Shown here piece by piece: positions 16,598 through 54,036 of a stretch of DNA of 64,000 bases. The notes beneath the pieces were generated by a model. The model saw only the letters and a program-made list of their open reading frames with translations, had not been told where the DNA came from and did not search any database. Position numbers and translations under genes: made by a program. Positions within the stretch are counted from its first letter, which is position 1. Each line of letters starts with the position of its first letter. This DNA comes from Malacoraja senta (taxonomy: Eukaryota), in NCBI GenBank assembly GCA_038087875.1, contig CM075990.1:12712001-12776000 (forward strand), written 5' to 3'.

Positions 16598-16739
16598 CGG
16601 TCCTCTTGCCTCCGCCCTCCGCCACCTCCTGCTCCCCCGCATCCCCGTGACCGTTGTCGGCCGTGCCGGCCCCCAGCGCCGGGCCTGCGCCGCCATCGCT
16701 CAGCGGACGCGGCTGCGGCTGCGGATCCACCTCCGCCAT
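16598..16739 (-). CDS. BLOC1S2: BLOC-1 subunit 2, exon 1 (142 nt coding)
   Basis: ATG in a good Kozak context (AAGATGG) within a CpG island. Encodes MAEVDPQPQPRP...GGGKRT. The phase-1 donor CCG|gtaagc joins exon 2 in frame. Total CDS is 516 nt (171 aa). Confidence 0.9.
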
Positions 16740-20289: not shown

Positions 20290-20663
20290 CAAGAACATGT
20301 ACAAACGTTTTATTTAATCACGCAGGAGGAGTTACAAATGGAAATATTTCACAGAGCTCATACAACAAAAAACACATTTTCCCCTTACATCTGCCACACT
20401 GATCCACGATGTGCTCACCAGCAGTAAAACTAAATGGTGGTACATTATATTAGTTTAAAAACTTTACACAAGAACTTTTGTCCCCTTTACAAAACAATGT
20501 CACAGTCAAGTATTACTTGCATTTAAAAAGAAAAAATACAAAGGAAAAGTAAAAAGTCCAAATTCAACACTGCCCATAATGCAAAAAAAATCTGTGACCG
20601 ATTTCTTCACTTAAAGGATTTCAAAAGATGTCTATTCCCTCTTGTTATTATATTTGCCGCCGC
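20290..20663 (-). other. hnRNP D-family gene, terminal non-coding 3'UTR exon
   Basis: Branch-like CTTAAC near 20695-20690, acceptor cccttctgtttttcag, exon starting 20663. The exon is U-rich, with overlapping ATTAAA/AATAAA at 20318-20309. The 3' end is approximate. Confidence 0.75.
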
Positions 20664-21283
20664 CTGAAAAACAGAAGGGACAACCACAAGGTTAAGCCTT
20701 TTACCTCAGCTTTGTAGAAGCAGACAGTAACCATGTGAAGTACTGGGCTGGCCGAGTCATGTTTACTGTTTTATCAATATTGGATTAGAAGAATTAGTTT
20801 GATGAGCAAAACTATATTTTTGTTTGATTGGTAGTTATCTTCAAAGGAATTACCCAAGTCCTCCATGCTCTTGGGCCCAGCCTTCAGTTGTTATGCCAAC
20901 TGCATTTACAATATATTAACTATAATCACACACTGCAGATGCTGTAAAAATATACAAGTCCATTAACATTACAGACATCAGTCACGCATCACTACTGAGC
21001 TATAGAAAGAAAAAAGCAAGCATTATTTAGCAATTGGTAGTACATTACCAAATTACACACTACTAAAAGAAAGCACTTTTGTAAGAACGGCTTTATCCAT
21101 TGAAGAAACAGGAGGTCATGGCTATATTACCACTTAACTTGAGCCTGTAAAGAAAATATGACTACATAATTTTATCTAAAAAAAGGAAAAACAATGGCTG
21201 CGTGAATGAAAGTGTATAATTAGAGTTTTTTTTAAACTGTCTTTAATCTTTATGGTGAGACAGAAGGTTGGAAGAGACCATAC

Positions 21284-21369
21284 CACAGGGCATCTCGAAT
21301 TCTGTCCACAATGTGCAGGCTTGTACGAATCGTGTGGTCATGGTGACATGGCCTGCAATGAAGTTCCCA
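21284..21369 (-). other. 86-nt 3'UTR cassette (poison) exon of the hnRNP D-family gene
   Basis: tgtttgtacctgccag|TGGGAACTTCATTGCAGGCCATGTCACCATGACCAC...CCCTGTG|gtatggtctcttccaac. The start, end and downstream intron resemble HNRNPD exon 9 / HNRNPDL exon 8 as recalled. Confidence 0.82.
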
Positions 21370-22763
21370 CTGGCAGGTACAAACATAACGGTACAAGTCA
21401 GAATTAGACTGGTAGAATTCTTATCAGGCTGTTGCTCTGATGTTCTTAAAACCCATTATGGTACATTACCTGAGATCTTTTACTCATTAAGTGTTCAAAT
21501 ATCTCTAGGTTATCCTTACACAATTTACTGCTGTAACTAGCTATGCAAAAATTCAAAGCTAAATGGGAGTAAGAGTAAAAAAAGTTATACCCATATTTAA
21601 CACTTAGAATAATTACATATCTGCAGCATAAAAATAGGCAATTCATGAATCTAGATTATATTAAGCACAGAAATTAAAGAGCTAGTTCAATCTGGTGACA
21701 AATTGTCAAGTTAATACTACACACCAAAGCAATTGATGACATTATATAATCTCACAATCCGATAAGTACTGCCCATTTCAGAACTCTAGTTTTACTTCTA
21801 GGTTGTCCAGTGAAATGCTTCCGCCCCAAAAATAAGTACTTACATGATGATTTGAATTGTCATTTCTGCCCTACTAATTCAATATAGAGCAGTATATGGA
21901 AACCATTAGATCATCAGTGGTAGCCTTAAAATTACAATGAATTGGAGCGTGGCATGTTGTCCTCTCATTACTCCACAACCCACTCTCGCAAACAGCCAGA
22001 TCCACGAACCAATTTATAAACTACACGCTCTCCTACAAACTCTGAAATTAGTCTCACATACATCATTTTAATTTTAAAAATGCAGCTATAATTCAATGAC
22101 TAAGAAAGGAGGATTTGGGTCCATGAAATCCAAGGCTTAATTGTACTACGTAACCTCAATAAGATGAGTTTTTACATCTATCATAAAAGGTTCTTCTTGT
22201 TTTTCCACTCAAGAGATCAGACATTTATGGCACAGAATGAATCCCATTGGTCTTATTATACCTGTGCAATGTGAAAGAACCATTTAATCTAATTTAATTT
22301 AACATAACCCTATAAACCTGTACTTCTATTTTTTGGGTAGTGACCTCAGAACTAATGCTACCCGCTTCTCACATCTAATACATCTAACAATTTTTAATCT
22401 ATGTGCCTAATTTATTGATCATGGATAGCAATCAAGCACATTTGGCATTGCATCACAGCAACAGTTTAAGACTCCGAAGTTGAATTTAATATTGCAAAAC
22501 GTAGGTAGCTTACCATCAACTGAAATCCATTAAAAAAAAATTACATTACAGACGCGGTGATGTATGCACAAGTTAGTGGACAGTGAAGGTTTCAGATGAA
22601 CTGTGGAGTTTATGATTTTAGGGTACCGGCAAAGGCTTAATATAAGGGCAATTTTAGAAAATATTGAACCAGCTTTTTAATTCTATATGTGCAATGTGGC
22701 CTCAAGTACCCAAGAAACATAGCTTTACCTTGTTCCTGGAGAGCTTCGGAACAGTCAAGTCAT

Positions 22764-22834
22764 CTAATAAGGCCTATACTGAGTTTGGCCACTTCCTCCT
22801 CTCCTAGGAGCTTTACCATAGGTGCCTGGTTGAC
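22764..22834 (-). CDS. hnRNP D/DL/AB-family protein, exon 7 (stop-containing; exon continues as UTR to 22729)
   Basis: (S)QPGTYGKAPRRGGSGQTQYRPY-TAG, the family's C-terminal PY-NLS-type end. Acceptor ttttcag; donor AAG|gtaaag lies 35 nt after the stop. Confidence 0.93.
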
Positions 22835-22935
22835 CTGAAAATAAAATTAGTTGAAGAAAAGGATTTGTCAACTCTTCAGCTGTTGACTACCTTTTGAACT
22901 AAACTGTTGTTCAGCCAAAACCTTTGCCAGAAGTG

Positions 22936-23290
22936 TCAGTTTGGCTCAGCTGGTAGCAACCTCATCTCCAGTAAGGAACCAGTGGGTTCCAAGCTCCTAA
23001 TCAGATTGGAATGCTAAATCCAGGTTGATTGTTACAGTACAGCGCTGAATTATGCAGTGATAAAGGTGCCATGCTTCAAATGAGATGTTAAGCAGAGGCA
23101 GCGTATAATCTAGAAGATTCTCTCGTACTATTCCAAGAAACCAGCAGCTCACGATACTCCACAACTGGCACAAAAAACAAACCACGACCATTCATTTTAT
23201 GTTGTTGATGGCATGCTGTGCATAAAGTGGATGAGTTTATCTACGCAACAGTAACTTCATTTCGGAAGTAGTTGGTTGAGGAGTGTTTTA
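22936..23290 (+). mobile_element. Ancient tRNA-derived SINE remnant (DeuSINE-like)
   Basis: TGGCTCAGCTGGTAGC head, GGTTCCAAG B-box-like sequence, then AGGTGCCATGCTTCAAATGAGATGTTAA resembling the Deu domain (recalled). A similar remnant lies at 24355-24700. Confidence 0.5.
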
Positions 23291-24354
23291 GGACAGCTAG
23301 CTAAAATATTGCTATTACAAGTCAGTTCTTTGACATAGCTTTAATTAATATGCACACTGCAAGTTGCAACTTTCCAAGCAGCTAATTTAAAAACAGACAG
23401 ACTTGCATCAAGTTTTTGTTCCTTTATCAAATACAGTAGCAGTTTTACAATGTCAGAGGTTTCATTTATACTTCACAGCATGGAAGTATCAGCTTCTCCT
23501 GATCACACAGAAGTATGGATCAAAGCCAAATTCCCTTCAGATTAAATTGGCATACATTCTATCCTGTACGAGTTCTTCGTGGAAGTTGAAATCAAATATA
23601 AATATACAAATACACTTTAAACAGCAGAGTAGTGCCAACAGCAGCAGGTACTTTCATTCAAATCAAATTTCACGTTAAAATTCATCCAACCAACATCTAC
23701 TGGTTGTTTTTAGGAGGTGTGAACAAAGATTGCACTGGGTTGTGCTCTATCAAGGCATCATACAAACATTGTTCTTAGGGTGAAGATATATCCTATTTAA
23801 ATAGTAAACAAACTTTTCATGAAATGCCCAATTTTACCCTTGAATGGGTATCATATCAGTTCTATTCATCAATCAAATTTGGAGGGATATCTAGTCAATT
23901 TTGGAGTTTTCATTTCTCATTGTAGCTGGAAAGATAGCATTCCTTTTCTTATGGGAACATAATTATTAACAAGATCTCTCCATTTCACCACAGATCAATC
24001 TGGAATAGTAAGATTTTCTGATTTTGTGGTAAGAAAAGGCACTATAACAAAATAGGAGTTATTTATGGAATACTACAAACTTCCCTGGACAGAGGATGCT
24101 ATCAAAAAAATGCACACCGGGTCCTTTAACGGCTCAGAAGAGGGCATGTAATTCTCTTGTTGCTTGACAAATACTCAGGCCTTGCCAAAGTTATTACCGT
24201 TCTAATGTATGTACCAAATCGTAATCGTATTCTCAGCTGTCTGCAAGTATATGTCCATCACAGGATCTGGTATATTGCTGACCTAGGGTGAAAACCCTAA
24301 ACAATAACCTCCCTGTCCAAGGAAATGTAGAGACCAGTCCCACTTGAAGGCATC

Positions 24355-24700
24355 AGCCATGGCTCAGGTGGTTAATTTCACCTCAGAATCAAAGCTGTGA
24401 GTTCAAGCCTAAGGGATTGAGCATAACATTCAAAATGGAACTCCCAACACAACAAAGAAATTATGCTACCATCAGAGACTCGGTCATATTAAATGATGGC
24501 CATAACTGCCCTCAGGTGGATATATAATGACAAGCTGAGTGAGTTTCCCCAGTGGCCCAGTCAAATAATTCCTCAGAACACATCTAAAAGGGATGATCAA
24601 GTTATTTAATGCATTGCTATTTGCGGGTACTGCTGTGTACAAATTGGCTCGAGTTTCCTCTATTACACTAACTATACTGAAAAAAAAGCATTTAATTCGA
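24355..24700 (+). mobile_element. Ancient tRNA-derived SINE remnant (DeuSINE-like)
   Basis: TGGCTCAGGTGGT...GAGTTCAAGCC head, and a TGCTGTGTACAAATTGGC segment shared loosely with the 22936 copy. Confidence 0.45.
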
Positions 24701-25110
24701 TGCCGAGTGTGTTAGGATGCGATGTAATTAACAACAAAAAAATAAACAAGTCTTTAATTTATACCTACCACTGTCCAAGTGCAGATGATCTAACACCAGA
24801 GTCTGCAAAATCCAATTGTCTCCCTAGTAAGCAATCATCCAGGCAACAGTTTGGGGGAAAACTATGTTCTCTCTCAGCTTCTCCAAGCCAGACAAATACC
24901 GAGTAGGTGTGACTCACTATTAATGACTAACAAATCACCTGCTAGAGAGACAAAGAAAGCCACTCTCCATTTTTCCACTCCTTTTGCAAATATTTCTCTA
25001 CATCAGATTAGCCAAGATCAGCAACCCAGAAGACTGACAGAATATGGGACTACTTACTGGATTTTGTCAAGTAAACTATTGAGAATTGACTCCTGGTCAC
25101 TGAAACTTAC

Positions 25111-25278
25111 TGTTATAATCACCATATCCCTGTCCATAACCATAATAGCCATAGTTGTATGCTGGGTAGTCATAGCCACTATATCCACCATAATTCTGGT
25201 TATAGCCATAGTTATAATTTCCATAACTTGGGTTCCAATAGTTACTGTTGTAGCTTTGGCTCCAGGTCTGACTTTGTC
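25111..25278 (-). CDS. hnRNP D/DL/AB-family protein, exon 6 (168 nt, Tyr/Gly/Asn-rich low-complexity region)
   Basis: (G)[55 protein letters not shown]; acceptor tttccctttctag, donor gtaagt, phase 1-1. Confidence 0.95.
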
Positions 25279-26279
25279 CTAGAAAGGGAAAAACAAACAA
25301 TTATTAGCAATTCAGTGGACAAAAAAAGTATCAATATTTGTACAGACCACGTTTCATCTTTATGGCAGCAATCCATACACCTCATTCTCAACTGTAGTTG
25401 TGAATTAGATGGATAAACAACAGAAAGCTACCAAAGCAAATAGACAAAGCAAATAAAGCATAAGATTGACAGAGTTGCTGGTACATCTCATGGCAGAAGA
25501 TTGAATTTGATCCTATAATCCAGACCCTCAGAATAATTTAATTCCAGCACAGTATTATGTGGAGCTGTACTGTCCAGACCCACATAAACATGGCCATAGC
25601 TTGCAAGCGAAAGACTGAACATTTGGATGGTTGCAAGATTATTGCAAGTTACCCCATCTCCTGGCCAATCCGCATTCAACCATATCAGATGAACGATTTG
25701 AATCATTCAACAGCTGCTTAAGGAATCTTTTTTTTTTAAATTAAGACATTATAAATGACACTTCCCATTGACTGCATGCACAATCATTCTGAAGGAATGA
25801 TTTGCAATTTAAATGCAAGCCTTTTCTATGTGAACATTTCATCATATATTGTCTACAGTCATGACAGTCGTGCCAACGGGATAAAATAACATAGTATTTC
25901 CGTGTTATAACACACCGATACCTTGCATAGCACAATTTAGCACGGGATGTTTGCAGGAACAAGAGGATTAATTGAATTAACAATAAAAAAAGGACACAAG
26001 AGACAGAAGCTGTGCTGGGAATCCATCGTGAATTAGACATCCCACCCCCACCCAGAATTACTGCACTAGGCACAAACTGCCACCCTTCCTATCACAACAC
26101 ACCACTTTGCTGGAAACCTACTCTGCTGATGTTCCCTCAGCAAAGAACTGCCCATAGCTCAGTATGAAGATGTTGCCTGTGAAAGTTGCTATTGAGAAAG
26201 CAGCTTAACCGTTTGCTGCCAAGATGTGTTGCTCAGAAGCTGCACTCCAGCCAGATTTTTCCTTGAAAGTGGTGTCATC

Positions 26280-26765
26280 TTGTAGGAAAGATATCAAGCT
26301 GGAAAGGGTTTAGAAGATTTGAGCTTGTTGCCAGGACTCGAGGGCCTGAGCTACAGGGAGAGGTTGAGCAGGCTAGGACCCTATTCTTTGCAATGCAGGA
26401 GGATGAGGGGTGATATTATAGAGGTACACAAAATCATGAGGAATAGATCGGATAAACACACAATGTCTCTCGCCCAGAGTAAGGAAATTGAGAACCAGAA
26501 GACATTGGTTTACAGTGAGGGAGGAATGATTGAATAGGAACCCAAGGGGTAACCTTTGGTTTTACACAAAGGGTGTATGGAACAAACTGTCGAAAGAGGT
26601 AGTTGAAGCAACGTTTAAGAAACATTTAGATAGGTACATGGATAGAATAGGTTTAAAGGGTTATGGGCCAAATGTAGGCAGGCGGGACTAATGTAGAGGA
26701 GACACGTGGGTCACTGTGGGCAAGTTGGGTCAAAGGGCCTGTTTCCACATCGTAAGACTCGATGA
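26280..26765 (+). mobile_element. CR1-type LINE 3' fragment
   Basis: LPGLEGLSYRERLSRLG.YSL..RRMRGDIIEV.KIM, followed by the 3'UTR shared with the other copies. Confidence 0.88.
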
Positions 26766-27059
26766 CTGTTGTCCAGATTTCATGTGCTCCAAAATTATAA
26801 TTGTTAGGTGTTTCGAGATATAGTGAAAAACTTAGTTTTGCATGCCCCATTCACCTCCTGTTAAATGTCAAGATTACAGTGACTCCCTTTCTGTTTTTGG
26901 CCGCACTGCTCTTCCCATGTATGGAAAAACCTCAATGGCCAGCAGCCACCATAAAATGTGTTGCTAGGGGAAAAAATGGGTTGGCAAGGGCTGTACATTT
27001 ATTACAGCATGTAATCATTGTTCCCTGCTGTGAAGATCACTGCCCTCCATACATTATAC

Positions 27060-27153
27060 CTCCTCTACCTCTTCCTCTTCCTGTGAGTCCACCTCTGCCT
27101 CCCCACTGCTGTTGCTGGTACACTTCCTTAGGCTGAGCCAATTTGATTTCCAC
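27060..27153 (-). CDS. hnRNP D/DL/AB-family protein, exon 5 (end of RRM2, Q-rich and RGG)
   Basis: [31 protein letters not shown]; acceptor ttttaaag, donor gtataa, phase 0-1. Confidence 0.94.
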
Positions 27154-27446
27154 CTTTAAAACAAAACACAGTAGCAATTAAAAGTTGTGCTTGTGTTCCA
27201 GAAACAACATGCATTATATGAAAGCTTAGAGCAACTGTGAGGCTTTTAAAATTGGATTCGATATTTATTTATTCTTGTAATTGACAAGGTAATAATATAG
27301 TGTACACACTATCAGCATTTATTAACCAATTCACAGAAAATGAGATTAGTGTAATGTACTAATGGTCTACATGGACATGGTGGGCCAAAGGGCCATTTTG
27401 TGTTGTGAAACGAGGACTCTTAATTACCATTAGAAAATGACCATAC

Positions 27447-27578
27447 CTTGCTCGTTCCCACGTCGTGAAACTTCTTCTCCATAATCGTCTTTACTGGATT
27501 ATCTTCCTTGAATGTGATGAAGCAGAACCCTCTTCTCTTGTTGGTCTTGGTATCCATGGGAAGTTCAATTGATTCAAT
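27447..27578 (-). CDS. hnRNP D/DL/AB-family protein, exon 4 (132 nt, RRM2 RNP1)
   Basis: [48 protein letters not shown], phase 0-0. Confidence 0.96.
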
Positions 27579-27685
27579 CTATGAAATAACAAAACATTTT
27601 TTTCTAAATTGTGTAAACCAACTTTACCGTTCTCTTAACAGTTCTTTCTGACAGCCTTTACATCATTGAGCATGTTGGTCCAAGG

Positions 27686-27817
27686 GTGGAAGATTGCAAC
27701 CTTCACGTGGTCCGCCCTGTTTCGACTAATGCAATCAACTCGACGTGCACAAACGGAAGATCAAATAGAACAAGTTGCCCTACAACTTTAGGCTGTGCAC
27801 GCCACATGAAAGAAGAA
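27686..27817 (+). mobile_element. Short 5'-truncated non-LTR retroelement end with target-site duplication
   Basis: Direct repeat GTCCAAGG at 27678-27685 and 27818-27825, an AAGAAGAAG tail, and CpG-richer sequence than the surrounding intron. Confidence 0.7.
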
Positions 27818-28061
27818 GTCCAAGGCAAACTTTTGGAAATTATTTTCTCTTTCTTACCAAACCCCCAGGAATACCAAAGACCGGGCAACAGTGATCAGCT
27901 AGAAAATGACAAATACAGCCTCTCCTCGATTAAACAAATTATTGGCCTGAAAGTATTTATGTAGATACAGGTTTCCATCCTGGATTAATTTGTGAATGAT
28001 GATACACTTATTACAAAACATATTTACGTACCATTTTGCTGAGGGCAAAGCAAGATCTTAC

Positions 28062-28220
28062 CTCTCCATAGGTTCCGAAGTATTCTCTCACTTTTTCTTC
28101 CGGACAGTCAGGATCCAACCCACCCACAAAGATTTTCTTGATTTGTTCTTTGCCCTTCATAGCCTGTGCTCTCTTGGGGTCAATAACTCTTCCATCAAGT
28201 TTGTGTTCCTTATTTAATAC
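28062..28220 (-). CDS. hnRNP D/DL/AB-family protein, exon 3 (159 nt, RRM1 end and RRM2 RNP2)
   Basis: [53 protein letters not shown]; acceptor gttcag, donor gtaaga. Confidence 0.96.
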
Positions 28221-31200
28221 CTGAACATTAAAACAAAATACTGATTTATAATGCTTTTGTTGAATTAATGTAATGATCACGTGCAAGTGATTTTATTTAA
28301 ACAAGCAAAATTAAATTAATATGCATGTAAATTCTGTAGGTTCTAAAATCCCTGGTTAAGTACTTTTTGAAAAAGTGATAATAGCTTAATTCAGAATTTA
28401 TCCTCCATCTCCCAAATCTCTTACTCTGTTCCAACAACCACCTTAAATACATGAAACAGTTGGAGCAGGCCACTCAGCCCCTTATACTACTCCAAGAGAT
28501 CATGGCCGATCACAAACATAGTCCCCGAGCCCTCGCTGCCCTCTCAAATAGAGAATTTCAAAGATTCACTTCCCTCTCTATAAAGAAATTTCTCGTGTCC
28601 CATTTGGAGACCATAGCTCCTGATTCTGAACAGTTACAGGAAACATCGACTCCACATCTACCCCCCAGGGCAGCTCTCATTCTGCTAAAACGTTAGAGTG
28701 CTTTTATTCTGGAAACTCGTCCTTTCTATTCCTCCATGTAAAATATATCCTTCCTAACATGGGAAATAAATTTGTACACAATATTCATGACATGGAGTCA
28801 CCAGGAATTTAATTGCATGGTATTTCTGCTCTTTTACTTAAAACTCTCTTGCAATGAAAAACAAGGTATAATTTGACTTCCAAATTTCTTGTGCACCCAA
28901 ATTTTAAATGTCAGCAATACAAAGGAATTCAGTGAAATAATTAACAATGTTGTACTACAAACTGTCTAATATAAGCAGCATTAGAGAAAACAATTAACCT
29001 ATGTTGAGGGGGAAATCAGTGCAAGCATTATCACCATTTAACTAGTGGTTTCTGATTGTATTCCAATTTTCAAGCTGAACTCCATGATGAAAGGTTCCCC
29101 ACTATACAAGTGTTTGTCACTGTGCCTTTATTTCATTCAGATCTTGGATCATTTGTAAATCCCACATATTATTTCACATTTTAAAATCGCATATACCAAA
29201 CTTTAAAATGTTTTTTTTTTTAAATTAAGGATGGAATTCATCTGCGTTTCAGTGCATCAGGCCTTGCATTTGTTTGAAGATTTCATTCTTAGTGCTAGCC
29301 TCAGCCCCTCCTGGCATCAAATATCTATGCCAACCTGTCAAAGGCCGAAATACAGATGTGTGATTTATATGGGAACAAGGATATGGACATTTATACTTCC
29401 CTGTTTCTCATCACCAAGTTTAAATCCTAAAATGTTTGAACCAACAGACAAGGAGCCACAAGAGACTGCAGATGCTGGAATTGTGAGTAAAAGCAAACTG
29501 CTAGAAGAACAGGCAGGCAGCAATGTTTCAGTGAAACTTTGTTTGTCCATGTTCCTCCACCAATGTCTTGTCTCAGAGTTCCTCCAGCAGTTTATTTTTT
29601 GTCAACAGACCGGGAGCATCTTCTCAGAAGCAGTAAATCATTCCAAGATATTAATTTATCACAAGCCTTCATGGGTAATCAATGTGCTAAAGCCAGCACT
29701 GTCAAAATACCCAAATACCTCAAGACATTTATCAGAAGAACCTTGATATTATTGATCAGGGGCAACTTTACCAATACTTTATTGATGAGCCACACATTAG
29801 TTCATTCCACCAAAAACTGTTATAAGGTAGTGCTTTGGCAACTAAAGATATAGAAACTGTCCTTGATACAGCGTATTGACCTGAAATATCAAACATCCAT
29901 TTACATCCACAGATGCTGATTGACCTGCCAAGATCACCGAGCAGTTTTTTTGCTCCAGATTTCAGTATCTGCATCCTCTTGTGGCTCCTTGTATCCAGAT
30001 TTTCTGAAATATGACACTCAGTTCCATCAGTTATTCATAGATTATAACCACAACTCCAGTATTGATGATTTACATTTTGCCAACTTGAGGAACGACCCAT
30101 TTGTCACGACCTCTATTTGTTAACCAATCTTTCAGCAATATTCAATCCTAAAGTCCTTATCTTGTGGCACCTTGTCATGCATAGAGAAAATTATAATACA
30201 GGTACAGCAACGGAATATTGACCTTTATTGCAGAGGATGGAGTAGATAAAGAATCAATATTTTACACAGATACATTCTTAGGTTACCCTTTACCTAACCT
30301 TCTGGTTAGATCTTCAAAAATAACTAATTTGTTAATCACAATATCTTTTTCATAAAACACTACGTCCTCTGTTAGCACTTAATTTTATCCAAGTTACTTA
30401 ATATAAAATGCAAGAAAACTTGTAAGTTGCATATACCTGTGTCTAAAATGCAAAAGGAACCTCGTCACAAGATGAATGTGAAAGAGACCAAATTCTAAAC
30501 AGTTACATTACTAAATACCCAAATTAAATGGTAGAAAACAATTTAACAGCTACTTCTGAAGTCATCCTATTTACCCAATAGTGGATAAAATGCAGAAAGC
30601 AGACTAGGTGCACATTAGCATTTGCCCAAAACATTTTTTTCCCACAATGAACTATCACCCTCCCAATTAACAAGAGGTACACCTATCCTAGTATCATTTC
30701 AATGCTCAATTCACAACCCAAAGCAAAATGCACCATGGTGTCCAACGCCTTGGGATAAGTGAATGTTTCCTTGTGATTCAATGGCGATAATGGGTCACTT
30801 GAAAGAGCACTTCATGAAGCCCCTCAACCATTTTGACCTCAACAATATATTTAAGTACCTTGCTGTGATCTGCACACTGCATAACACATCCTAATATTTG
30901 CTATAAAATGTGTAATATTTAGCTATCAAAATGAAAGCATATACTTGGGATTATAATCTGTTGTTTTAGCAAAGCCTTCCTTCACTGTATTCAACTGATT
31001 TTCCTTCATGTTTTACACCCCTTCCACAGGGAAACAGCCATGTTAAAACAGAATCAAGTTCAAATACTGGCTGTTGCAGTTTGTCAACATGTCAAAATCA
31101 TGATGGTATATTGAAGAAACTTCAAAACGCAAATACTTTAAGTTTGCTGTTGAAAAGGTCTGCAGGACAAAACTGCATTGCAATAGTTCCTTTACTTTCC

Positions 31201-31639
31201 TGGTCACCTCCACAATTCAAGTCAAGCATTGATAATTTCAGCTGCCAAGACCACTTAAATGTATAGCTCTCAGACAGCACTTCCAGATTTCTGCCATTTT
31301 CAAAATATTATTTTCTTCTGTCGATCTCCGATATCTTGCTCCAGAGAAGAGCTCTTGATCCCAGACCTCTTCCATTGTCCTCCCAAATAAAATTGCGACA
31401 CTTGTTGTAATAAGACCCTTAGACAAAGTTACAATGTCAATTTTTCCCAGCCCTAACTGACGACACAAATGCAATCTAGATCAGCACATGAAGATGTGCA
31501 GCAGCATCAATTCAAACCAGTAACTTCAATGCCAGCATACTTATATGTAAAATCCTTGTATCATTCCCCCTAGTCAACGCATCACCCAGTTATCAACTCA
31601 CTATTTAAACTGGCTTCAATGTGTGACAACACCAAAAGG

Positions 31640-37548: not shown

Positions 37549-37717
37549 CTTTTCTACACTTTCAGGATCCTTGAAGAGGATAAACCCAAATCCTCGCGAA
37601 CGCCCAGTCACAGGATCCATTTTGATTACGCAGTCTACAATGTCTCCATATTTAGAAAAGTAGTCCCTTAAATCTTTCTTGCTTGTTTCCCAGCTGAGTC
37701 CACCAACAAACATCTTC
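37549..37717 (-). CDS. hnRNP D/DL/AB-family protein, exon 2 (169 nt, RRM1)
   Basis: [59 protein letters not shown]2 and RNP1 motifs; phase 2-0. Confidence 0.97.
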
Positions 37718-40700
37718 CTGCACAGTGACAATATAAAAAAAGGAAGTGCAAATCAGTTTTGAGAACAGCGCTAGTACAAGAATGTTAACTTAGCTCAGAT
37801 GGGGTGGGGTCAGCACTACCAATACTGGTCACCTCCTCCACAGGCATTTTAGTGCAAACTCAATCTTGGCTTAGAGGTGAATATCTTGTTTCTCCGTCCA
37901 ATGCTCTGGGAATTAGTTAGCATTATCCATGTTACATTACCTAGAAATTTAAATGTCATACTCCAATGGAAGACGTTTATCAAGAAAGAAAGAAAGAAAA
38001 AAAATCAGGGATGCTAACTCCAAGTACTTTGCATCAGACACTTCAACCATCAAGCTACCCATAACCTTTGACAAATCCCATGTAACATTCAGGCCAAGTA
38101 GACAAATGAAAACTACATGATCTAATTATTTTTTTTTTGTAGAAGTTGGGATGGTAGAAATTTTGTATATTGTGATTTTGAGCAACAGCAGTAGTTGTTA
38201 GCCTAACATTATTTCTTCATCATATTAAAATACAAACATACCATAATCGTTCAAGAGCTGGAAAAGAGATTCCAAGACCTGTGTACTTAAAAGAACAACA
38301 CAAACCCTTATGTCATGCAAGCAATTCCAAATAATACATGCACACTCTACCCAACTTCTGTGAATAGCATTGTGAAATATCTTCCCCTCATTGTCCTGGA
38401 TTTTACTCAGTTCTAACTGTGCTTTCATGTTGTGCCTTGCTCTTAAGGCCAAGGAAGACAGACTATGTGTACCCGGTTCATTCATCACACTGGTTCCAAT
38501 CAAAAAAAGGTACTTGGATTACCAAACACATTATGATTAAAGCAAACTATGAATTAAAAAAAATGGTTTCAAGATGGTCAAGGAAAGCAGAAATTACTAA
38601 GGCAAGTGAAAACAGTCAGAAATGTCTTTTGATTGCAATTTCGGTTGGATAAGAGATAATTCACACACCAAAGAAAGAGATCACTACTTCCAGATCTATA
38701 AAACAATGGTTAAATAATCAAATTGAAATGGTACCAGCATTATTAGCCTCCAAGACGCCATTTTAGTTGAGAGCAGGTTTAATAGAGTACAAAGCCCTGG
38801 ATTCAAAGAGTTATAACCACCATTTGACCAGCAACTGGTGGGGTTATTGAGTCATGAAACTTATATGTCTTCTTGGCTTGAACATGCCAAGAAAAAAATC
38901 TCAAGTACTCCAAATTGTTGCTTCAATTGCTTTCAATTAAAAATATTTTTTTATAATCAGAGTTCAGTCTTTGTCTTGTATTAAATTGTATTACCTGATC
39001 TGGACACAGAAGAGACGGGAAGAGTTTTGGTTTGAATGAAATTAATATGAATTTCATTAAACAAGACGAATAGTGAAGCTAAAAAAAGGGAATTGGAATG
39101 CAACATACAAAGCTCTGCAATGTCCCAAATACCTTTCAAAATAGTTTTGTTATAAGGTTATAAATGTTATTCACTGTTGCATATGAGAAAATAACAAACA
39201 TAGTTAATGGTGCAAAGTTGGCCAGAAACCTCAACTGACAAAGATTCCATGCATTGGCTTGCAACAGACATCATGGTAATTTAAACAATGTCCTAGGCCA
39301 AAATGATAATCAACAGCCCATGCAATTTTCAATGGTAATAATTTCCTTCATGGATGCCAATAATATAGTTTAGTTTATAGGAATGATGCAAGAGCCAACA
39401 TTACAACATAATTGGAGCAAGTATACCATGAAAGAAAACCCATCTTTTGCTCCAGGTTTAGTAAAGGAGCCAGGAATGCTATTATTCATTACACCTTGCA
39501 AACACCATTGCACAAATTATCAATTGTCAAACTTCACTGCACAAATATCTGCTCACTTATCAACCTGCCCAGACGAACATGTCCTGGCCCTGTGCCCGGC
39601 TGCATATTAAATAATTATGTCACTGTGCTCCTCCTCCAACTAATTTCTAAATCATTGTCTTGTCAACACCATCCAAAAATTCTTGCAAGCCAACTTACAC
39701 ACATATCCCTCCTAACTGCTTACTGTACCTCAACTTTCTGCATTTCACAAACCAGTAACATTCCATTCCACACCAATATTTAAAAAGCTTTTCTATTCTT
39801 TCTCCATGTGAACAACTTCTCATGGAACTGGTGCCCATTATTGACGATTGTCTGCTACAACTGAGTAAAGGATTTGCTCCAACCACCTAGCAGTCACTCC
39901 ATGAAACAAGTTTTTTTCAACTAAAAGCTATTTTGAACAGCTAAAAATGTATTCTTGTTACTGCAAATTAAAAAACACTTTAAAAAAATTGTTACATTGT
40001 TTAACAGAGTATCATTCCACAAATGTCCATCGAAGCAATTGCTTGTCAATTTCAACGATCCTCTCGCAGTGTAACTAACAGCCTGTGTTCTTAGAGATAA
40101 TGGTGTCTGATTACTGTGGGGACGCTCCCTACAACTTAACCAAAATCTGGTACAAAAGAGTGTAAGAAGGAACTGCAGATGCAGATTTACACCTAAGATA
40201 GACATAAAATGCACTGAGTAACTCAGTGGGTCAGACATCTCTGGAGAAAAGGAATAAATAGGTGACGTTTCCAATCAAGACCATTCTTCAGACTGAGAAT
40301 CAGGAGAGAGGGAAACGAGATATGAAAAGGAACATAGAATAAATAAATTAATGAAAGGTATGCAAAGGGGCAAATCAAAGCTACCAATGATGATCAAGAG
40401 AAGATGGGAGCCCACAATGGTCCATTTTTGTCTGTGGAGAAGGTGATAACGAGTGATACAAACTGAAACTCGGCAGGATGACAGTTAAACTAGTACAAAG
40501 ACTAGGGTGGGGGAGGGACAGAGAGAGGGGATTGAAGGGTTACTTGAAGTTAGAGAAATCAATATTTCATTAAAGATGAATAGTGAAGTTCAAAAAGGAA
40601 AATGGAATGCAACTCAGCCATATAGTCAATCTTTGGGAAGTACAGATATCAGGATAGGCCAGAATCTCTCCTTTTGTCTGAGCCGACTTCACTTTCCTGG

Positions 40701-41024
40701 CATAAAGACAACTTAACTGAGAACTTCCAGAACCAATTCTTGTGCATTTCCAGGCATAGCTGTCAACATTAATACATAACCTTGAGTTTGCAAAGAGTTT
40801 TTTGAAGACAGCAAGGGATCAGGCACTAAGTTGGCACTAAGCATCCTGCCAACTCATCATTCTCCAAACAAAACCCTCATAGAAAAGTAGTGAAGAGCAG
40901 TGCAACTAACCGAATTTCTCTTCAGCCAAATAAGGAATGCAGAGCAAAAGTTATAAAATTGTGCGTAATGTTTTGTTTTTAGACTAGTTGAAATCACTCA
41001 GGCCACCCAACAGGCAATTTGCCT

Positions 41025-41815
41025 CACCTTCCACCCCATCAGCCGTCGCATACATCATATAATCTGCCAACACTTTTGCCACCTCCAATGGGATCCCACT
41101 ACTGGCCACATCTTCCCATCTCCACCTTTTTCTGCTTTCCTTAGAGACCGTTCCTTCCCCAACTCCCTGTTCAACTCGTCCCTTCCCACCCAAACCACCC
41201 CCTCCCCAGGTACTTTCCCCTGCAACCACACGAGATGCAACACTTGTCCATTTACCTCCCTCCCGACTGCACCCAAGGACCCCAACAGTCTTTTCAGGTG
41301 AGGCAGAGGTTCACTTGCATGTCCTCCAACCTCATCTACCGAGACCAAGCACTGGCTCGGCGATAGTTTCCCTGAACACCCCCACTCAATCCGCCTTAAC
41401 CTACCTGATCTCCCGGTTGCTCAGCACATAACTCTCCCTCCCATTCCCAATCTGACCTTTCTGTCCTGGGCCTCCTCCATTGTCAGAGTTAGGCCCAGCG
41501 CAAATTGGAGGAAAAGCACCTCATATTTTGTTTGGGTAGCTTACACCCCAGCGGTATGAACATTGACTTCTCTAACTTCAAATAGCCCTTGCTTTCCCCT
41601 CCATCCCCTCCCCCTTCCCAGTTCTCCCACCAGTCTTACCATCTCCGACTACATTCTATCTCTGTCCCGCCCACTCCCCGGCATTAGTCTGAAGGGTCTC
41701 GACGCGAAACGTCACGCATTCCTTCTCTCCTGAGATGCTGCCTGTCCCGCTGAGTTACTCCAGCATTTGTGTCTACCTTCGATTTAAACCAGCATCCGCA
41801 GTTCTTTCCTACACA
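41025..41815 (+). mobile_element. Penelope-like retroelement 3' portion
   Basis: Longer homologue of the 44415-45024 copy, including the Cys-containing linker (PCNHTRCNTCP), GIY-YIG remnant and terminal repeat. Confidence 0.82.
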
Positions 41816-44414
41816 TCCTAGGCAATAGATTGTTGTTTATTGATGTCAGGAGTGACACTGTAGGTACTTCCCATACTCATGTAAAATATAGATTCTTATT
41901 CTAGTTCAAAACCTATGAGATAGAGTCATGAACCAGTCAGATCAACATATAGGTTTCCAGACCTGTTTTTTGCATTTTTCCACCCAATATAAAAGATGCA
42001 GTAAAGATGAAGGTAAAGAAAATCCCTGTATCCATCAACCTATTATTGCAGCATTATACTTGTACCAAGCATTGTAGTGTGACAAAAGATAAAATATTGC
42101 AATTACAAGCAAATTATTATAAGCAAATCCGTGCAGAGATCTCAGATACTAAGCATGATTTATTCGCAGTCACCTGAAGCAATACTCCATACTAGCTATT
42201 GCAGGTAATTTGAATTAAAAGGTAAAAGAAAGGCTTGGTTTTCCCAGCATTAGTTGAGGATTCCAACAAGTTCCACTCTAAACTGGATGCTCAACTTCAT
42301 GACCAACAGTCAGTGATGATAGGCGACAAATCATCTTCTACAATAATCCTCAACACTGGTGCCCCGCAAGGATGCGTACAATAATAAAACTGAAACATAA
42401 AGAACTGCAGATACTGATTCAGTATCTGAAAGAGGTACTGAAAGCACAATAATAAAGCCAATTCCTGCAATACCTCACGTATACCATCATGGATTTCACT
42501 GTATTTGGAAAGAGGTTCATACCTGAAACACACCCAATTATTTATAAACCACTAGCATTATCCTTGCAGTCGTTCTTTCCACTATAACCAAAATCCATTA
42601 CAAAGAGGTTCATAATAACAAGGGTAGACTCTACTACAAACTCAAATAGTCCATTCTTTATCTGCGGCTAAATGTTGAAATGACCCTTGTGGACAATTCC
42701 ACCCTGGGAAAAAAGTTTTAACTTTCTACCCTCTCTGTGCCTTTTATAATTTATTTTGCATATAAAATTTATGAGTGGCCTAGTCAGAGCTTTTTCCCGG
42801 GGTGGAAATAAATCTATACGGTGAGAGGGGGAAAGTATAAAGGAGATGCGCGGGTCAAGGTTTTTTTCACACGGAGATTGGTGGGTACCTAGAATGCATT
42901 GCCATGGGTGGTGGTGGAGGCAGATACGATAGTGGCATTTAAGAGCTTTTAGATAGGCGTGTGGAAGTCTGGGGAATAGAGGAATATGGATGATGTACAG
43001 GCAGATGAAGTCAGTTTAACTTGGCATCATGTTCGGCACAAACATTGTGGACAAAGGGCCCATTACTGTGCTGTACTGTTCTATGTGAACTCATCAAATA
43101 ACTTATAGCTTTCACAGAAGCAGTCCAGACAAAATTAAAAATGTCTGCAAGAAACTTCTCACCTACTCCAACAGATGCTAGCAATAGCAGAATTGCCACT
43201 GAAATAAAAACTAGGCAGTTTTAAGAGAATAATTAAATAGACCGTTTAATGAGGTGTTTAACACGGCATTGAATTAGGAAGCAAACGTGTACTGTTAATA
43301 GAGACCTAGTAACAAAGGTGGAAACAGCAATGGAAAATTATGATTGCCCAGCATATTACTGGTAAAGAAAAATAGGATGAGTAGGGTCAGTTGGCACTTT
43401 GAGTGTGTTCTGCCATTCATCGAGACTATGGCTGTCCATCTTGCTATAGACTAATTTCCTCAACCATTACCTCGATTCCCTTAGTCATTTTGTCAAGATT
43501 TAGACAATTCCCTTAGTCAAGATTGTTTTCTGAATAATAAGCCTCCACATTCTTCCAGGGTAGAGAATTCATAAGATTTGCCACTCTGCCTGAAGCAATT
43601 TCTCACTTTTAAATGGTTCTGCCCTTATTCCGAGACACAGATCCAAACTATAGCTCTGGCCCTCAAACCTAATTTAATATCTAACCCGGAAATATAACTG
43701 ATCTCCTCAGCCAGCCTGATAATTATGAGTGGTTGGGACTCAAGCACTGATCCCAACTAATCAACAATCCTGATTATGTGGCAGCCTATTTTAGAATGGT
43801 TTGCTGAAAAACAAAGCAAAACCAACAATTGTGTCCTTGATTAAATCTTTAAAAGGCCATTCATACTGGCGGCAAAGAAACCGGGATTGTAATAAATCCC
43901 AAGGCTTTAAATCATGCACACGTCAATTGGTCAATTAATGCACAATGACACCAAAAAAATATTTCCACCCTAAAAAAAAAATCAAGTCTAGTAACTTAAA
44001 TCGTCCTAGTGAAACAGTAGCAAAAACAACTGTTTTCAAAGACAAAAAGCAAGTTCCCAAGCGCCATTGGTCAGAGTACCAAAGTTTTGCAACCTACAAC
44101 TTAGACATCCTGAGTTAAGGCAGTAAGACCAAAATAAGGCACCAAATTAGAGTACTTCCTGAAAAGACTGAACTAAGGCACAAAGTTATTCTACCTTAAA
44201 AAGTATGAGATGGCAAACACTGGATGTACAACTTCATTAGCACCGAGTATGGAAATAAGAAACAAAGTTCAAAATTAAATTGGCCCATTAAACTGCAAAT
44301 CTCTCCCCAAATGATTTCCATCCAAAGGAACTAATGAATCCTCTAATATGCCAGATAGCTACAAAAAAACATGCAGGCAACAGCTAGAGCAATCAAATAG
44401 TCAAAATCATCAGG

Positions 44415-45024
44415 TACACAAAAATGCTGGAGAAACTCAGCGGGTGCAGCAGCATCTATGGAGCGAAGGAAATAGGTAACGTTTCGGGCCGAAACCCTTC
44501 TTCAGACTGATAGGGGGTGGGGAGAAGAAAGGAAAAAAGGAAAAGGCGGAGGAGGAGCCCGAGGGCTGGGGGAGGGGAGGAGACAACCAGATGGCTGATG
44601 AAGGGGAGGGGACAGCCAGGGCTAGCAGAATTGGGAGAATTCAACGTTCAGGCCACCAGGATGTAGACTGCCCAAGCGGAATATGAGGTACATTTCCTCC
44701 AATTTACGGTGTTGCTCGCTGTGGCCATGGAGGAGACCCAGGACAGAGAGGTCAGATACGGAATGGAGGGGGAGTTGAAGTGCTGAGCCACCGGGAGTTC
44801 AGGTTGGTTATTGCGGACCGACCGGAGGTGTTCGGCGAAACGATCGCCAAGCCTCCGCTTGGTCTCACCGATGTAGATCAGCTGGCATCTAGAGCAGCGA
44901 ATGCAATAGATGAGGTTGGAGGAGATGCAGGTGAACCTCTGTCGCACCTGGAACGACTGCTTGCGTCCTTGAATGGAGTGGAGGGGGGAAGTGAAGGGAC
45001 AAGTGTTGCATCTCTTGCGGTTGC
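44415..45024 (-). mobile_element. Penelope-like retroelement 3' portion with GIY-YIG endonuclease
   Basis: ORF 44648-44947: FTCISSNLIYCIRCSRCQLIYIGETKRRLGDRFAEH...VAQHFN, i.e. LIY-YIG, R and EH motifs of the PLE GIY-YIG domain. Confidence 0.9.
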
Positions 45025-46767
45025 AATCATCATGTGGGTTGGGTGCATCAGAACATCAAAAGACTAAACTGGGATTAAATCATGATTATGGTGGAATTAA
45101 TGCCCTAGAGATTGCTTAATACTTAAGGAATCAAAAAGCATTTGTACAAATTCTCCCATAGATAAGCTTAACAGTGCATTTATGGTTTTTGTTTCCAACT
45201 ATGGTGCACAGTAATAAGAAGAAAATCTAGTGTGATGAGTTATGTTCAGAGATTTTTTATGATATGGCATATAAAGAAAACTCCTAGATTAAAAAGTAAT
45301 CATCCATTTTAAAGAAACCCTCAAAGATTTTAGGAGATGCTTATTTGCTGGCCCTGCAAGCGGATTTGGAGAACTTTACAAATATAGGGCTGTGCTACTT
45401 CTTACAGTGCTCTGAGATGTCTGCTGCATGGCTCCAGAGCCAGGTCAAGAACTAGAAACACACATTTTTCCCTCAGGCTATGTTGACACACTGAAGATAA
45501 TGATGAATTTTATCAGCATGAATGCCTGCCTTTGACGAGAGATGGTTCCTGGGATATCAGAAGTGCAACGTGTTTTCTGGGGTCTCTTTATAGCCCTTTA
45601 ACATTGGACATCGTTGAGGCAAGTTACCGAATGAAGTAAATATAAAAGTGCAGAGAATAAGATAACCATTACAAAAAAAAAACACTAAAACTGGCAGGGA
45701 TTACATTATAAAAACAGCTATCCAACATGGTTCCAAAAAAAAATGTAGACCTTTGTCGAAAGTCACTTCAATATCCCTGCTACTAGAGAATGTAAGCAGC
45801 TTCGATCAGGGTTCAACTGCACATTCATTTCACTGCCAACCTCAGACCAGAGCAGAAGGACAAAACTATTTGCAGTGCAAATTCCAAGGAATAAAAAAAT
45901 ATTTATATTTTTCTACATTATTGTAAATTTTCATCATCCATGCACACTTCTATGGAACACAAAATGTATCAATATTTACAAGAAGAATAAATACTGAACA
46001 ATCACTATTTTGGACTCACATTTCAATCACATTTGTCTAACGATAGAAAAAAACCTATGAAACCTAGCCTGGTGAAAAATCAGAATTAATAAAAAGCTGA
46101 AGATGCTGGAAATCAGATTTATAAATAGAAAATGCTGGAAATGTCAGCATGTCAGGTAGAACCTGTGAAAAGAGATATTGTGCGACGTGCTTGGCGTTTG
46201 AGCATTTTCTCTTTAAGTTCAGCTTTGAAGGCCTTGGATCAACTCATAACATTTTCACTTAAGGAACTAGCATGTCCAAGTCCTTCTCCAGAAGTCCAAA
46301 CACAAATATCTAGGGTGACATTTAAGTTTGGTACTGAGGGAGTAAGTACCGTGTGGTCGGAGACAACTTAAAAGTTGTTAAACCAAGGCATTGGTTGCAG
46401 TTCTAGTTGAATGATCAGTGCCACAATATCACTGATACAACAGTGGGGTGATTAACAACAACTAACTAGCAACAGAGGCAGGTAGACAAAAATGCTGGAG
46501 AAATTCAGCGGGTGAGGCAGCATCTATGGAGCGAAGGAAATAGGCAACGTTTCGGGCCGAAAGCCTTCTTCATTCAGGACCAATAATCTGACATATAATC
46601 TTAAATTTCCACACAGGCAGCTCTGCAACTAAATGAATCTGAATTTTCAAAAATCTGGTATAATTGCCTGTAAACATAAACCCACTAGATGGTCAGATCA
46701 TACCCCATTATTCACATGTCCATCTGAAAAGGAAATCTGCCAACCTTACCTGGTACCTGCATTTCTC

Positions 46768-47057
46768 AGGAAATGCACCTCATATTCCGCTTGGGCAGTC
46801 TACATCCTGGTGGCCTGAACGTTGAATTCTCCCAATTCTGCTAGCCCTGGCTGTCCCCTCCCCTTCATCAGCCATCTGGTTGTCTCCGCCCCTCCCCCAA
46901 CCCTCGGGCTCCTCCTTTTCCTCCTTTTCCTTTTTTCCTTTCTTCTCCCCACCCCCTATCAGTCTGAGGAAGGGTTTCGGCCCGAAACGTTACCTATTTC
47001 CTTCGCTCCATAGATGCTGCTGCACCCGCTGAGTTTCTCCAGCATTTTTGTGTACCT
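46768..47057 (+). mobile_element. Penelope-like terminal fragment, near-identical inverted copy of 44415-44700
   Basis: ORFs 46822-47013 (+) and 44456-44644 (-) translate almost identically. The copy is flanked by TACCTGGTAC at 46747-46756 and 47053-47062. Confidence 0.85.
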
Positions 47058-47219
47058 GGTACAGACCATGTCTGACTCTATCCACCCGAATATTGTCAAC
47101 TTTTAACAGCCATCTCATTTCAAGGTAATTAGAAAGGGGCAATATTCACAAGAAAGGGAGGAGTTCAAGAGAATACTGGATATTATTCCCCATCCAACAT
47201 CAAAAACATGATCACAAAA

Positions 47220-48090
47220 TATAGAATGGTACAGCACAGGAATTGGCCCATTGACCCAATGTTTGTGCCGAACATGTTTAGCTGAACTGATCTCATCGGC
47301 CTGCAAGTGATCCATATCCCTCCATTCCCTGCAAATCCATGTGCCTAACTAAACATTTCTTAAACGCCACCATCACATCTGCCTCCTTCACCACCTCGGC
47401 AATGCATTCCAAGCCCCCAAAAAACACCCTGCACATCTCCATTATATTTCCCCCTCATCTTATAGCTATGTCCTCTAATGTTGGGCATTTCCACCATGGG
47501 GAAAAATGTTCTGACTGTCTATCCTATCTATGCCTCTCATAATTTTGTATACTATCAAGTCTCCCCTCAACATCTGACTTTCCAGAGAAAACAATCCAAA
47601 TCTATCTAACCTCTCCCTGTAGCTGAAACCCTCTAATCCTGATAGCATCCTGGTAAACCACCTCTGCACCCTCTTCAAATCTTTCACATTGTTCCTGTCA
47701 TGGGGCAACCAGATCTGCACACAATTACCAAATGTGGTCAAACCAAAGTCTTAAAAAGCTGCATCAAGACTTCCCGACTCTTGTATTCAATGCTCCTAAC
47801 AATGAAGGCAAGCATACCATATACCCTCTTTACCACTATCTACTTGGACTGCCATCTCTAGTGAGCTATGAACTTTGATTCCAAGATCCCTCTGCACATT
47901 AATGTTGTTACGGTCTTGCCATTAACCGTATACTGCCTCCTTACATTCAGGCTCTCAAAATGCAACAACTCACACTTGCTCAGGTTAAACCTCATCTGCT
48001 ATTTTTCCACCCATTTCTGCAGCTTATCTATATCCTGCTTTATCTTCTGACAGCCTTCCTCACTGTCTGCAACTCTCCAATATTGGTACT
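47220..48090 (-). mobile_element. CR1-type LINE 3' fragment, decayed
   Basis: CVQIW.PH...LKRVQRWFTRMLSGLEGFSYRERLDRFGLFSLE..MLRGDLI.YKIMRG. Confidence 0.85.
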
Positions 48091-48982
48091 GTCAGCAATC
48101 TTAAATCAAGCTGCTGATTTTCACATTATGCAATGCCCATGGACAAAAAAAATGCTATTATGTGTCTATGTTATCCTGCACTACAAATACTTTTCTTCAG
48201 CTGCAAAATATTTTGGAAACAATAGAAGCCTCTGCCATATATTGTGCAGACCAGTTTAAAAAAAATCAAGGCCATGGAAGTTCAAAACATTTTTTGTTCT
48301 AAATGTTCATTATGTGATCATTTGTCAGCACAGCATCTATTGCACCCCAGCACGTTGTTACGCCATTTCAGTTGAATCAACAACATTGCTGTAAATCAGA
48401 TGTCGTGAAAGATCATGAATTTGAATCTCAGTGTCCTATCTGGGACATGACAATAAAACACTCTGGACTCTTGAATTTGATCGTCAGTATTGTTTACCTC
48501 ACCACCGATGTTGATTGAGCTGATGAGTATTTCCAGCGTTTTATTTGAAATGAATATTTTGCACAAAGATCAATGAATGGGCCGTGAGGGGAACGTGAGT
48601 AATAAGGGCACTTTGAAGAAGGGTCTCGACCTATTCCTTTTCTCCAGAGATACTGCCTGTCCCGCTGAGTTACTCCAGCTTTTTGTGTCTATCTTCAGAG
48701 CATTTTCAATAACAGGGTCAGGATGAGTATTTAATTTCACATAGTTAATTCAAAGTAGACTACCTTTGTTGCTTTGCTTGATCAGGACCCTGGTCTCTGG
48801 TGGTTAGATTCCCCTGTCATTAAGCCGCTGAGGCAATAAGGTGGGGAACATTTAATCTCAGTACAAACTGGCTCACCAGACCCTCAATGAGCTCCACAAA
48901 GGGGGGTCACCCGCGGGTCAGCCCAGGACTAGGCCCCAGCGCCCCAAACACAAGCCCGGCCTCTGCTCCCTCCCGCACTCAC

Positions 48983-49302
48983 CCCTCGTCCTCCTCGTTC
49001 TTGCTGGCGTTGATCTTCGAGCCTTCCATCTCCTTGTTGGTCGGCGGCTGTAGCTGCTGCGACGACGGCACCGCCTGGCTCCCGTCGCCCGCCCGCCCCG
49101 AGGCCTCGTGGCCAGGCCCGCCGCCGACACCGACGCCGCCGCCGCCGCCACCCACGCCTTTGGACGCATCGGCTTTCGAGTCCGTCGCGTTGCCGAAAGC
49201 CTCGTTGTCTACCGGGCCGCCGAAACTGTAAAAGGCGGCGTCGAAACCGTCGGGACCCGCCCCGGCGCTGCCGTTTTCTGTGAACTGAGCCGAGTCCGCC
49301 AT
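48983..49302 (-). CDS. hnRNP D/DL/AB-family protein, exon 1 (320 nt coding, Gly/Ala-rich N-terminus)
   Basis: ATG at 49302 (AAGATGG). MADSAQFTENG...EGSKINASKNEEDEG ends in the family's pre-RRM motif. The phase-2 donor GG|gtgagt matches exon 2. Total CDS is 1113 nt (370 aa). Confidence 0.93.
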
Positions 49303-53990: not shown

Positions 53991-54036
53991 AGAGGGAACC
54001 AACCCCGGGCCCCCCAGACCGGCTCCAGCTGCTTAC

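Follow-up and report, generated by a model that had tools for sequence, protein, structure and literature searches.

The genes closest to the one reported here are the three described members of the hnRNP D family (D, DL and AB; squid-like), namely HNRNPD (AUF1), HNRNPDL (JKTBP) and HNRNPAB (CBF-A). In human, HNRNPD and HNRNPDL are located at 4q21 near SCD5 and SEC31A, HNRNPAB at 5q35 and BLOC1S2 at 10q24. PMC5824352 gives hnRNP DL as a limb-girdle muscular dystrophy gene; according to the same paper, its 3' cassette exon (uc.144 or exon 8) is included in human cells under control of D and DL, leading to nonsense-mediated decay (NMD), for which a distance limit of 50-55 nt beyond the stop codon applies. 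Here we describe a further gene of this family in a window of 64,000 nt from the skate Malacoraja senta (GenBank assembly GCA_038087875.1, contig CM075990.1, positions 12,712,001 to 12,776,000; C14:12.712-12.776 Mb in the following), where it occupies the minus strand of positions 20290..49302 upstream of BLOC1S2. That it is a distinct ancient paralogue is hardly in doubt. We further consider it probable that it represents the 1-alpha (human 10q-side) copy from whole-genome duplication, a fourth hnRNP D family member kept in cartilaginous fishes and lost in bony vertebrates.

An earlier note on this DNA had reported an intact gene with two RNA recognition motifs (RRMs) next to BLOC1S2, and our exon reading agrees: seven coding exons yield 370 amino acids followed by a stop codon, and all seven of the motifs quoted in that note were found on the minus strand within 20290..49302. 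All coding introns are of the GT..AG type with consistent phases. The six introns are at hnRNP D family positions, which rules out a retrocopy. Compared with P0123, a RefSeq protein of little skate, 3 of the 370 positions are different; Pfam identified two RRM_1 stretches in P0123. RNP1 and RNP2 motifs are intact in both tandem RRMs, and the tail carries the Gln run, RGG, Tyr/Gly-rich stretch and terminal PY that are features of the family; the ESM Atlas returned family-level names only. Relative to DL and to the chimaera copy, exon 3 lacks one residue, and exon 6 is missing from shorter database isoforms of relatives (P0004, P0006 and P0049).

HNRNPDL shares with this gene the two RRMs, Gln run, RGG, a Tyr/Gly tail with an optional exon, the terminal PY, a stop codon just before a 3' untranslated region (3'UTR) junction and a conserved cassette exon, and human DL was the best solved-structure match (PDB, E 2e-122). 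However, RRM identity to DL is 70-72%, the gene forms a clade of its own, its predicted cassette exon measures 86 nt as against 105 nt, and DL is located on another chromosome (C1). HNRNPD resembles it in architecture, intron positions, a homologous 3'UTR cassette (107 nt in this genome) and 75% RRM identity, but nesting with shark D is rejected (see below), and D lies on C1 in tandem with DL. HNRNPAB has the same architecture and the highest RRM identity (76-78%; 78% to shark AB versus 75% for D and 72% for DL). In contrast to the skate gene, shark AB groups with bony vertebrate AB, the little skate AB gene resides on LER11, and shark AB has a full CBFNT N-terminus (residues 1-58, E 1e-8), of which only a partial match is seen here (68-107, E 2e-5).

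In a 70-row tree of the RRM core, the gene and its relatives form their own clade (support 100/95) beside clades of D (100/99), DL (100/99) and AB, the latter uniting sharks and bony vertebrates without this gene (94/88; 96/88 and 98/95 in further trees). D, DL and AB group to the exclusion of the gene (88/86), and the vertebrate D/DL/AB clade including it is separated from invertebrate relatives (100/99). A 29-row subset gave 100/94 for its own clade and 85/84 for D, DL and AB without it. When the tail was added (28 rows), the four clades held, with 99/99 for this gene and 83/99, 100/99 and 98/95 for the others. Left out of the trees were redundant isoforms, fused D+DL models (except for the N-terminal half of the pigeon one), divergent mammalian DL-derived proteins and pufferfish D proteins with an insertion. 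Approximately unbiased (AU) tests with the 29-row set rejected a grouping of the gene with shark D (p 0.0002) or with shark DL (p 0.0004). The protein is thus nested in neither D nor DL, whose genes stand in tandem on C1; nor is it the AB orthologue, since a separate shark AB gene exists that groups with bony AB and coexists with it. With the chimaera RRM sequence inside the clade and the invertebrates outside, the duplication falls after the invertebrate split and before that of chimaera and sharks.

The earlier note had also read the protein as a mosaic of AB-like and DL-like residues, which does not stand. Among 183 columns, eight residues are unique to the clade, two are shared only with lamprey, two only with AB, two only with DL and none only with D; the apparent mosaic mostly reflects changes of its own and ancestral states, and these counts rule out a recombinant protein. 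Likewise, the linker before RRM1 that had been called DL-like is present in shark AB too.

The chromosomal setting agrees with the previously suggested 10q24-side duplication copy. C14 carries NDUFB8 at 5.05 Mb, SEC31 at 5.06-5.12 Mb, Wnt8 at 5.13 Mb and SCD at 5.20-5.22 Mb, which we take to be the gene order of human 10q24.31, and a Pax gene at 2.89 Mb; SCD was recognised by exon reading and had been missed by a Pfam FA_desaturase search. On C1, D and DL are followed by their own SCD (345.56 Mb) and SEC31 (345.69 Mb) within 345.38-345.69 Mb, presumably as at human 4q21. The segment that carries the gene thus belongs to the same paralogon, its neighbours being paralogous, as expected of an ohnologue. 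The linkage table of PMC10115646 assigns LER34 and LER15 to 1alpha, LER1 to 2alpha and LER11 to 2beta; its supplement places the four little skate loci at Leri_34C 6.46 Mb next to Bloc1s2 (named only Hnrnpd-2), on Leri_1C (Hnrnpd-1 and Hnrnpdl) and on Leri_11C (Hnrnpab). The gene sits on the other copy of the paralogon from the first genome doubling (1R). Assignment of LER34 to 1alpha predicts the topology (this gene,(D/DL,AB)), which is that of the best RRM tree.

The gene had been proposed to be a copy retained in this lineage. It is common to cartilaginous fishes rather than lineage-specific: among 515 proteins fetched, 499 of which had an RRM match, 47 are of this type (at least 96% RRM identity), and their 19 source species comprise sharks, rays, skates and one chimaera. 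Five sharks have records of each of the four types, namely Hemiscyllium ocellatum, Mustelus asterias, Rhincodon typus, Chiloscyllium punctatum and Scyliorhinus torazame; the first three were placed in the tree. The last 105 residues of the chimaera record P0009 equal those of a chimaera AB record (105/105), while its RRMs match this type at 155 versus 136 of 165 positions; it is likely a chimeric transcript, and only the RRM part was used. The cluster representatives in the collection further contained divergent DL-like proteins with long unusual tails (P0347, P0363, P0369, P0370, P0376, P0378, P0382, P0395, P0404 and P0408; one is named tree shrew). These may be a mammalian group that derives from DL and evolves fast. 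Automatic annotation already lists the gene, as "hnRNP D-like" in RefSeq and as Hnrnpd-2 in little skate, and databases label it, shark AB and shark DL alike as "D-like". In the literature within reach, that is, outside subscription papers, we came across no account of the gene as a distinct paralogue or ohnologue, and we saw no match to it in the 12 of 24 whale shark supplementary files searched.

D/DL-like 3'UTR introns, noted before, were confirmed. The stop codon precedes the last junction by 35 nt, which places the skipped form under the NMD limit of 50-55 nt, and the last intron contains a block matching D (E 5e-28) and DL (E 9e-25); of 20 shuffled controls, two gave any match at E<=0.01. 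A conserved cassette with splice sites, together with a stop codon less than 50 nt from the junction of the skipped form, is the layout of alternative splicing coupled to NMD of the D/DL type. Our RNA runs stem from relatives of the skate, and four of them are only guessed to be RNA. In X21 (poly(A) RNA of a related organism), the junction between exon 7 and the last exon is covered by 13 reads and that between exons 6 and 7 by 10 reads; nearly all of these have their first mate on the plus strand, which fits RNA from the minus strand. The same two junctions occur in contigs of X15, X16, X18 and X19. Splicing of the 3' exons is thus seen in RNA from related species. Read depth in X21 is about 2 immediately downstream of the cassette, compared with 0 on its upstream side. 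Between relative and skate, 17 of 1703 bases differ in 20636-22345 as compared with 71 of 2328 in intron 6; this lower divergence fits constraint on the region. Introns 20636-22757 and 22805-25138 are also present as a whole in contigs of the four runs guessed to be RNA, at about 1/10 to 1/5 of the depth of the spliced form, and may represent intron retention, pre-mRNA or DNA.

Several observations weigh against an origin by genome doubling, or at least against its details. Of the separate D, DL and AB loci that this genome was expected to contain, only the first two were found, so that it is other cartilaginous fishes in which the set of four genes is shown. A genome search with exon 2 retrieved 12 matches. 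Besides the gene itself and its copy at a distance of 37 kb (see below), these are two tandem genes on C1 (73% identity), namely D (345.38 Mb) and DL (345.42 Mb), and eight distant RRMs. AB was absent from three genome searches, which included a teleost AB-NME5 fusion model and shark AB as queries, and from the whole 75.7-kb unplaced contig that carries NME5 (C1467:882-4408). Taken alone, this would suit a simple relocation of the Malacoraja senta HNRNPAB to C14. Such a move has next to no probability and is already refuted by coexistence in single species, as a 99%-identical gene occurs beside a true AB on another chromosome in little skate, and the four types stand side by side in the five sharks named above. 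Moreover, other genes of the AB segment are missing as well: the genome searches revealed no Pkd2l match, no Sec24a and no second Wnt8, leaving one Wnt8-type gene and two SEC24A/B-type genes (on C14 and C1). In little skate, Hnrnpab, Sec24a and a Pkd2l gene share Leri_11C (supplement of PMC10115646). As these genes are missing together and NME5 is on an unplaced contig, the region that corresponds to little skate chromosome 11 near 45-50 Mb is likely under-assembled here and the lack of AB an assembly gap; a real loss of AB in Malacoraja senta could instead account for it.

The second set of points concerns the trees. Only one lamprey gene was included and amphioxus, tunicate and hagfish were absent; the basal position of the gene (88/86 and 85/84) is not decisive, and with the tail added the order of the four clades becomes an open fork. 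Furthermore, groupings of the gene with shark AB (p 0.075; 0.069 with the tail), with all AB (0.18), with D+DL (0.17) and with all DL (0.17) are not rejected in AU tests. The first of these values, the high RRM identity to shark AB, the two columns common to AB only and the restriction to cartilaginous fishes would be compatible with an HNRNPAB duplicate that arose early in cartilaginous fishes, moved to C14 and diverged fast. We regard this as improbable: shark AB joins bony AB with 94-98% bootstrap, forcing the union costs 5.7 and 10.7 log-likelihood units, lamprey has one of the two residues shared with AB, and the gene keeps two residues seen in lamprey that are absent in D, DL and AB. It also carries the D/DL-type cassette element, and a random move would have had to end within the small set of chromosomes that belong to this paralogon. 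Even less credible is an old segmental duplicate of the D/DL locus, made before the D-DL split or from DL independently of genome doubling. The shared cassette element and 3'UTR layout, the human DL structure as best match and the unrejected unions with D+DL or all DL could be taken in its favour, but the element could equally be ancestral, the best RRM tree puts AB nearer to D and DL, and SCD and SEC31, which adjoin D and DL, have paralogues on C14, as genome doubling predicts.

The third set concerns synteny, RNA and taxon coverage. The SCD-SEC31 block is 7.5 Mb away from the gene, so that synteny is chromosome-scale, not gene-by-gene; and the paralogue names SEC31B, WNT8B, SAR1A and SPOCK2 as well as the human gene order are assumed, only the families having been tested. 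It had been suggested to look for SCD, SEC31B, PKD2L1 or CWF19L1 on the chromosome of BLOC1S2: SCD and SEC31 are there, but no PKD2L1-type match was obtained on C14, and a CWF19L1-type exon is on C9:29289591-29289809, a placement that presumably differs from the human order. In little skate, CWF19L1 is on Leri_22C (PMC10115646). The cassette-exon junction was not seen in six runs of relatives, X21 being too thin in depth to count. Finally, none of the 515 fetched proteins that comes from a bony vertebrate is truly of this type, a result of protein searches with no bony vertebrate genome searched; two pufferfish records flagged as nearest by BLAST proved to be D proteins with an insertion. One of these searches comprised the best 120 of 960 matches, with the genomes of gar, bichir, coelacanth and lungfish outside it. 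Hence the ohnologue might also be kept, unrecognised, in some bony vertebrates such as gar, bichir, sturgeon, coelacanth or lungfish, especially as PMC10115646 counts 17 chondrichthyan ohnologues shared with coelacanth and 24 with ray-finned fishes besides 19 chondrichthyan-only ones, and our protein searches listed top matches only. We give this little credence: among the best 120 of 960 matches, the 10 with at least 93% identity are all chondrichthyan and the other 110 have at most 82%, those of gar, bowfin, bichir, paddlefish, coelacanth and lungfish being AB by name, and six were placed in the AB clade. From these protein comparisons, the 1-alpha copy appears to have been lost in bony vertebrates. 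Overall, the protein is not strongly nested in D, DL or AB and does not represent a relocated copy of one of them, and we retain the 1-alpha duplication copy as the best explanation. The features of the locus are compiled in Table 1.

Table 1. Features of the hnRNP D family gene and its surroundings in the window (window coordinates).
Feature	Position	Strand	Basis or remark
Coding exon 1: start codon, Gly/Ala-rich N-terminus, conserved linker before RRM1	48983..49302	-	exon reading; matches little skate P0123
Coding exon 2: most of RRM1 with RNP2 and RNP1	37549..37717	-	exon reading, motifs, genome search
Coding exon 3: RRM1 end, linker, RRM2 start	28062..28220	-	exon reading
Coding exon 4: RRM2 with RNP1	27447..27578	-	exon reading
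Coding exon 5: RRM2 end, Gln run, RGG stretch	27060..27153	-	exon reading; RNA loose ends at 25280 run into exon 5 in 4/4 runs
Coding exon 6: Tyr/Gly-rich, low complexity	25111..25278	-	exon reading; joined to exon 7 in 4/4 runs
Exon 7: last coding part (preceded by 25278-25111), PY-motif end	22729..22834, coding 22834-22764	-	exon reading and RNA
Stop codon	22764-22766	-	35 nt ahead of exon 7 donor
Conserved non-coding block common to D, DL and skate gene	21242..21408	-	inside last intron; sequence match
Predicted 86-nt cassette (poison) exon	21284-21369	-	AG..GT-bounded; aligned to D and DL cassettes
Last exon, non-coding	20294..20663	-	junction supported by 13 raw X21 reads and by contigs of X16, X18, X19
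AATAAA	20309-20314	-	within last exon
Poly(A) site	20294	-	poly-T loose end in X19
Likely promoter: four copies of an 84-92 nt unit, GC-box and CCAAT-like words	49336..49682	.	directly 5' of start codon; putative function
BLOC1S2 coding span, five exons, downstream neighbour	11202..16739	-	exon reading; Pfam BLOC1_2 for 12970-13089
Second copy of 16552-53790, start	53991..64000	.	directly after 200-N gap

From the poly(A) site of the hnRNP gene it is about 3.5 kb to the start of BLOC1S2 on the same strand; the Pfam BLOC1_2 match was obtained for one of the two exons tested, and 4 of 13 neighbour exons had no Pfam match. The genes around the window are of cadherin, mitochondrial carrier, BLOC1S2, hnRNP, SEC24A/B, SAR1/Arf, trypsin-like and SPOCK type; we take the cadherin, SAR1, trypsin-like and SPOCK genes to be CDH23, SAR1A, TYSND1 and SPOCK2 of human 10q22, the tests covering families only. 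The mitochondrial carrier gene downstream of BLOC1S2, with an EF-hand-like first exon (2159-2416 and L030:7705-7863, both on the minus strand), is presumably SLC25A24/25-like, and we know of no such gene on human 10q. Two pieces of transposase reading frames at 286-1296 (minus strand) are presumably of the Tc1/mariner family. About 30 kb from the hnRNP gene, at C14:12.81-12.85 Mb, a SEC24A/B-type gene (exon L028:1458-1643) adjoins the SAR1-type gene. Its best PDB match is SEC24B, followed by SEC24A, and one exon is 55% identical to the C1 copy. As mentioned, little skate Sec24a is on Leri_11C, and the C14 gene may be another retained 1-alpha ohnologue without mammalian counterpart.

Beyond the N gap, a repeat had escaped the earlier reading: the block 16552-53790 (37.2 kb), which takes in BLOC1S2 exon 1 and the entire hnRNP gene with its introns, recurs at 53991-91260 (to C14:12803260) with 99.8-99.9% identity. 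The first copy ends and the second starts exactly at a gap of 200 N. Identical paired matches were encountered elsewhere in the assembly, at SEC31 on C1, at Wnt8 exons and as two pairs in the AB search. Near-identical copies, introns included, that break exactly at the gap make a true tandem duplication of the gene unlikely; such a pattern arises where overlapping ends of contigs were left unmerged, the second copy is likely a false duplication, and one gene was counted.

As to function, the 1-alpha gene would have split from the D/DL/AB ancestor at 1R. By homology to AUF1 and hnRNP DL, its two RRMs would bind U/AU-rich RNA, its Tyr/Gly tail, with exon 6 being optional, would serve assembly and its terminal PY motif nuclear import, and the protein may act in splicing and in mRNA stability or decay like these two relatives. 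Inclusion of the 86-nt cassette is predicted to leave a junction over 50 nt downstream of the stop codon and thereby to direct the mRNA to NMD, so that its level would be held, probably with cross-control among three paralogues. In its full extent, this proposal reads the gene as the only surviving 1R sister of D/DL/AB, lost in all bony vertebrates, and the uc.144 poison exon as an element that predates 1R and wires three cartilaginous-fish paralogues into one cross-regulating NMD circuit. We put this wider proposal forward tentatively, as a possibility short of an even chance.

The pattern of ohnologues kept by cartilaginous fishes is already known; PMC10115646 names wnt6b and cspg5 among those lost in bony vertebrates, and the gene described here would show the same evolutionary pattern. 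If the neighbouring SEC24A/B-type gene is a third gene of its kind retained 30 kb away, the two would form a small block of retained 1-alpha genes. For the family as a whole, the number of genes in the jawed-vertebrate ancestor would go from three to four. The gene would provide a slow-evolving outgroup for AUF1, hnRNP DL and hnRNP AB, would date the dosage-control element common to D and DL to an older duplication, and would allow one to see, in a natural setting, how cross-regulation deals with an additional paralogue. Lastly, it would correct an orthology, as the uniform "D-like" labels misguide comparisons of expression.

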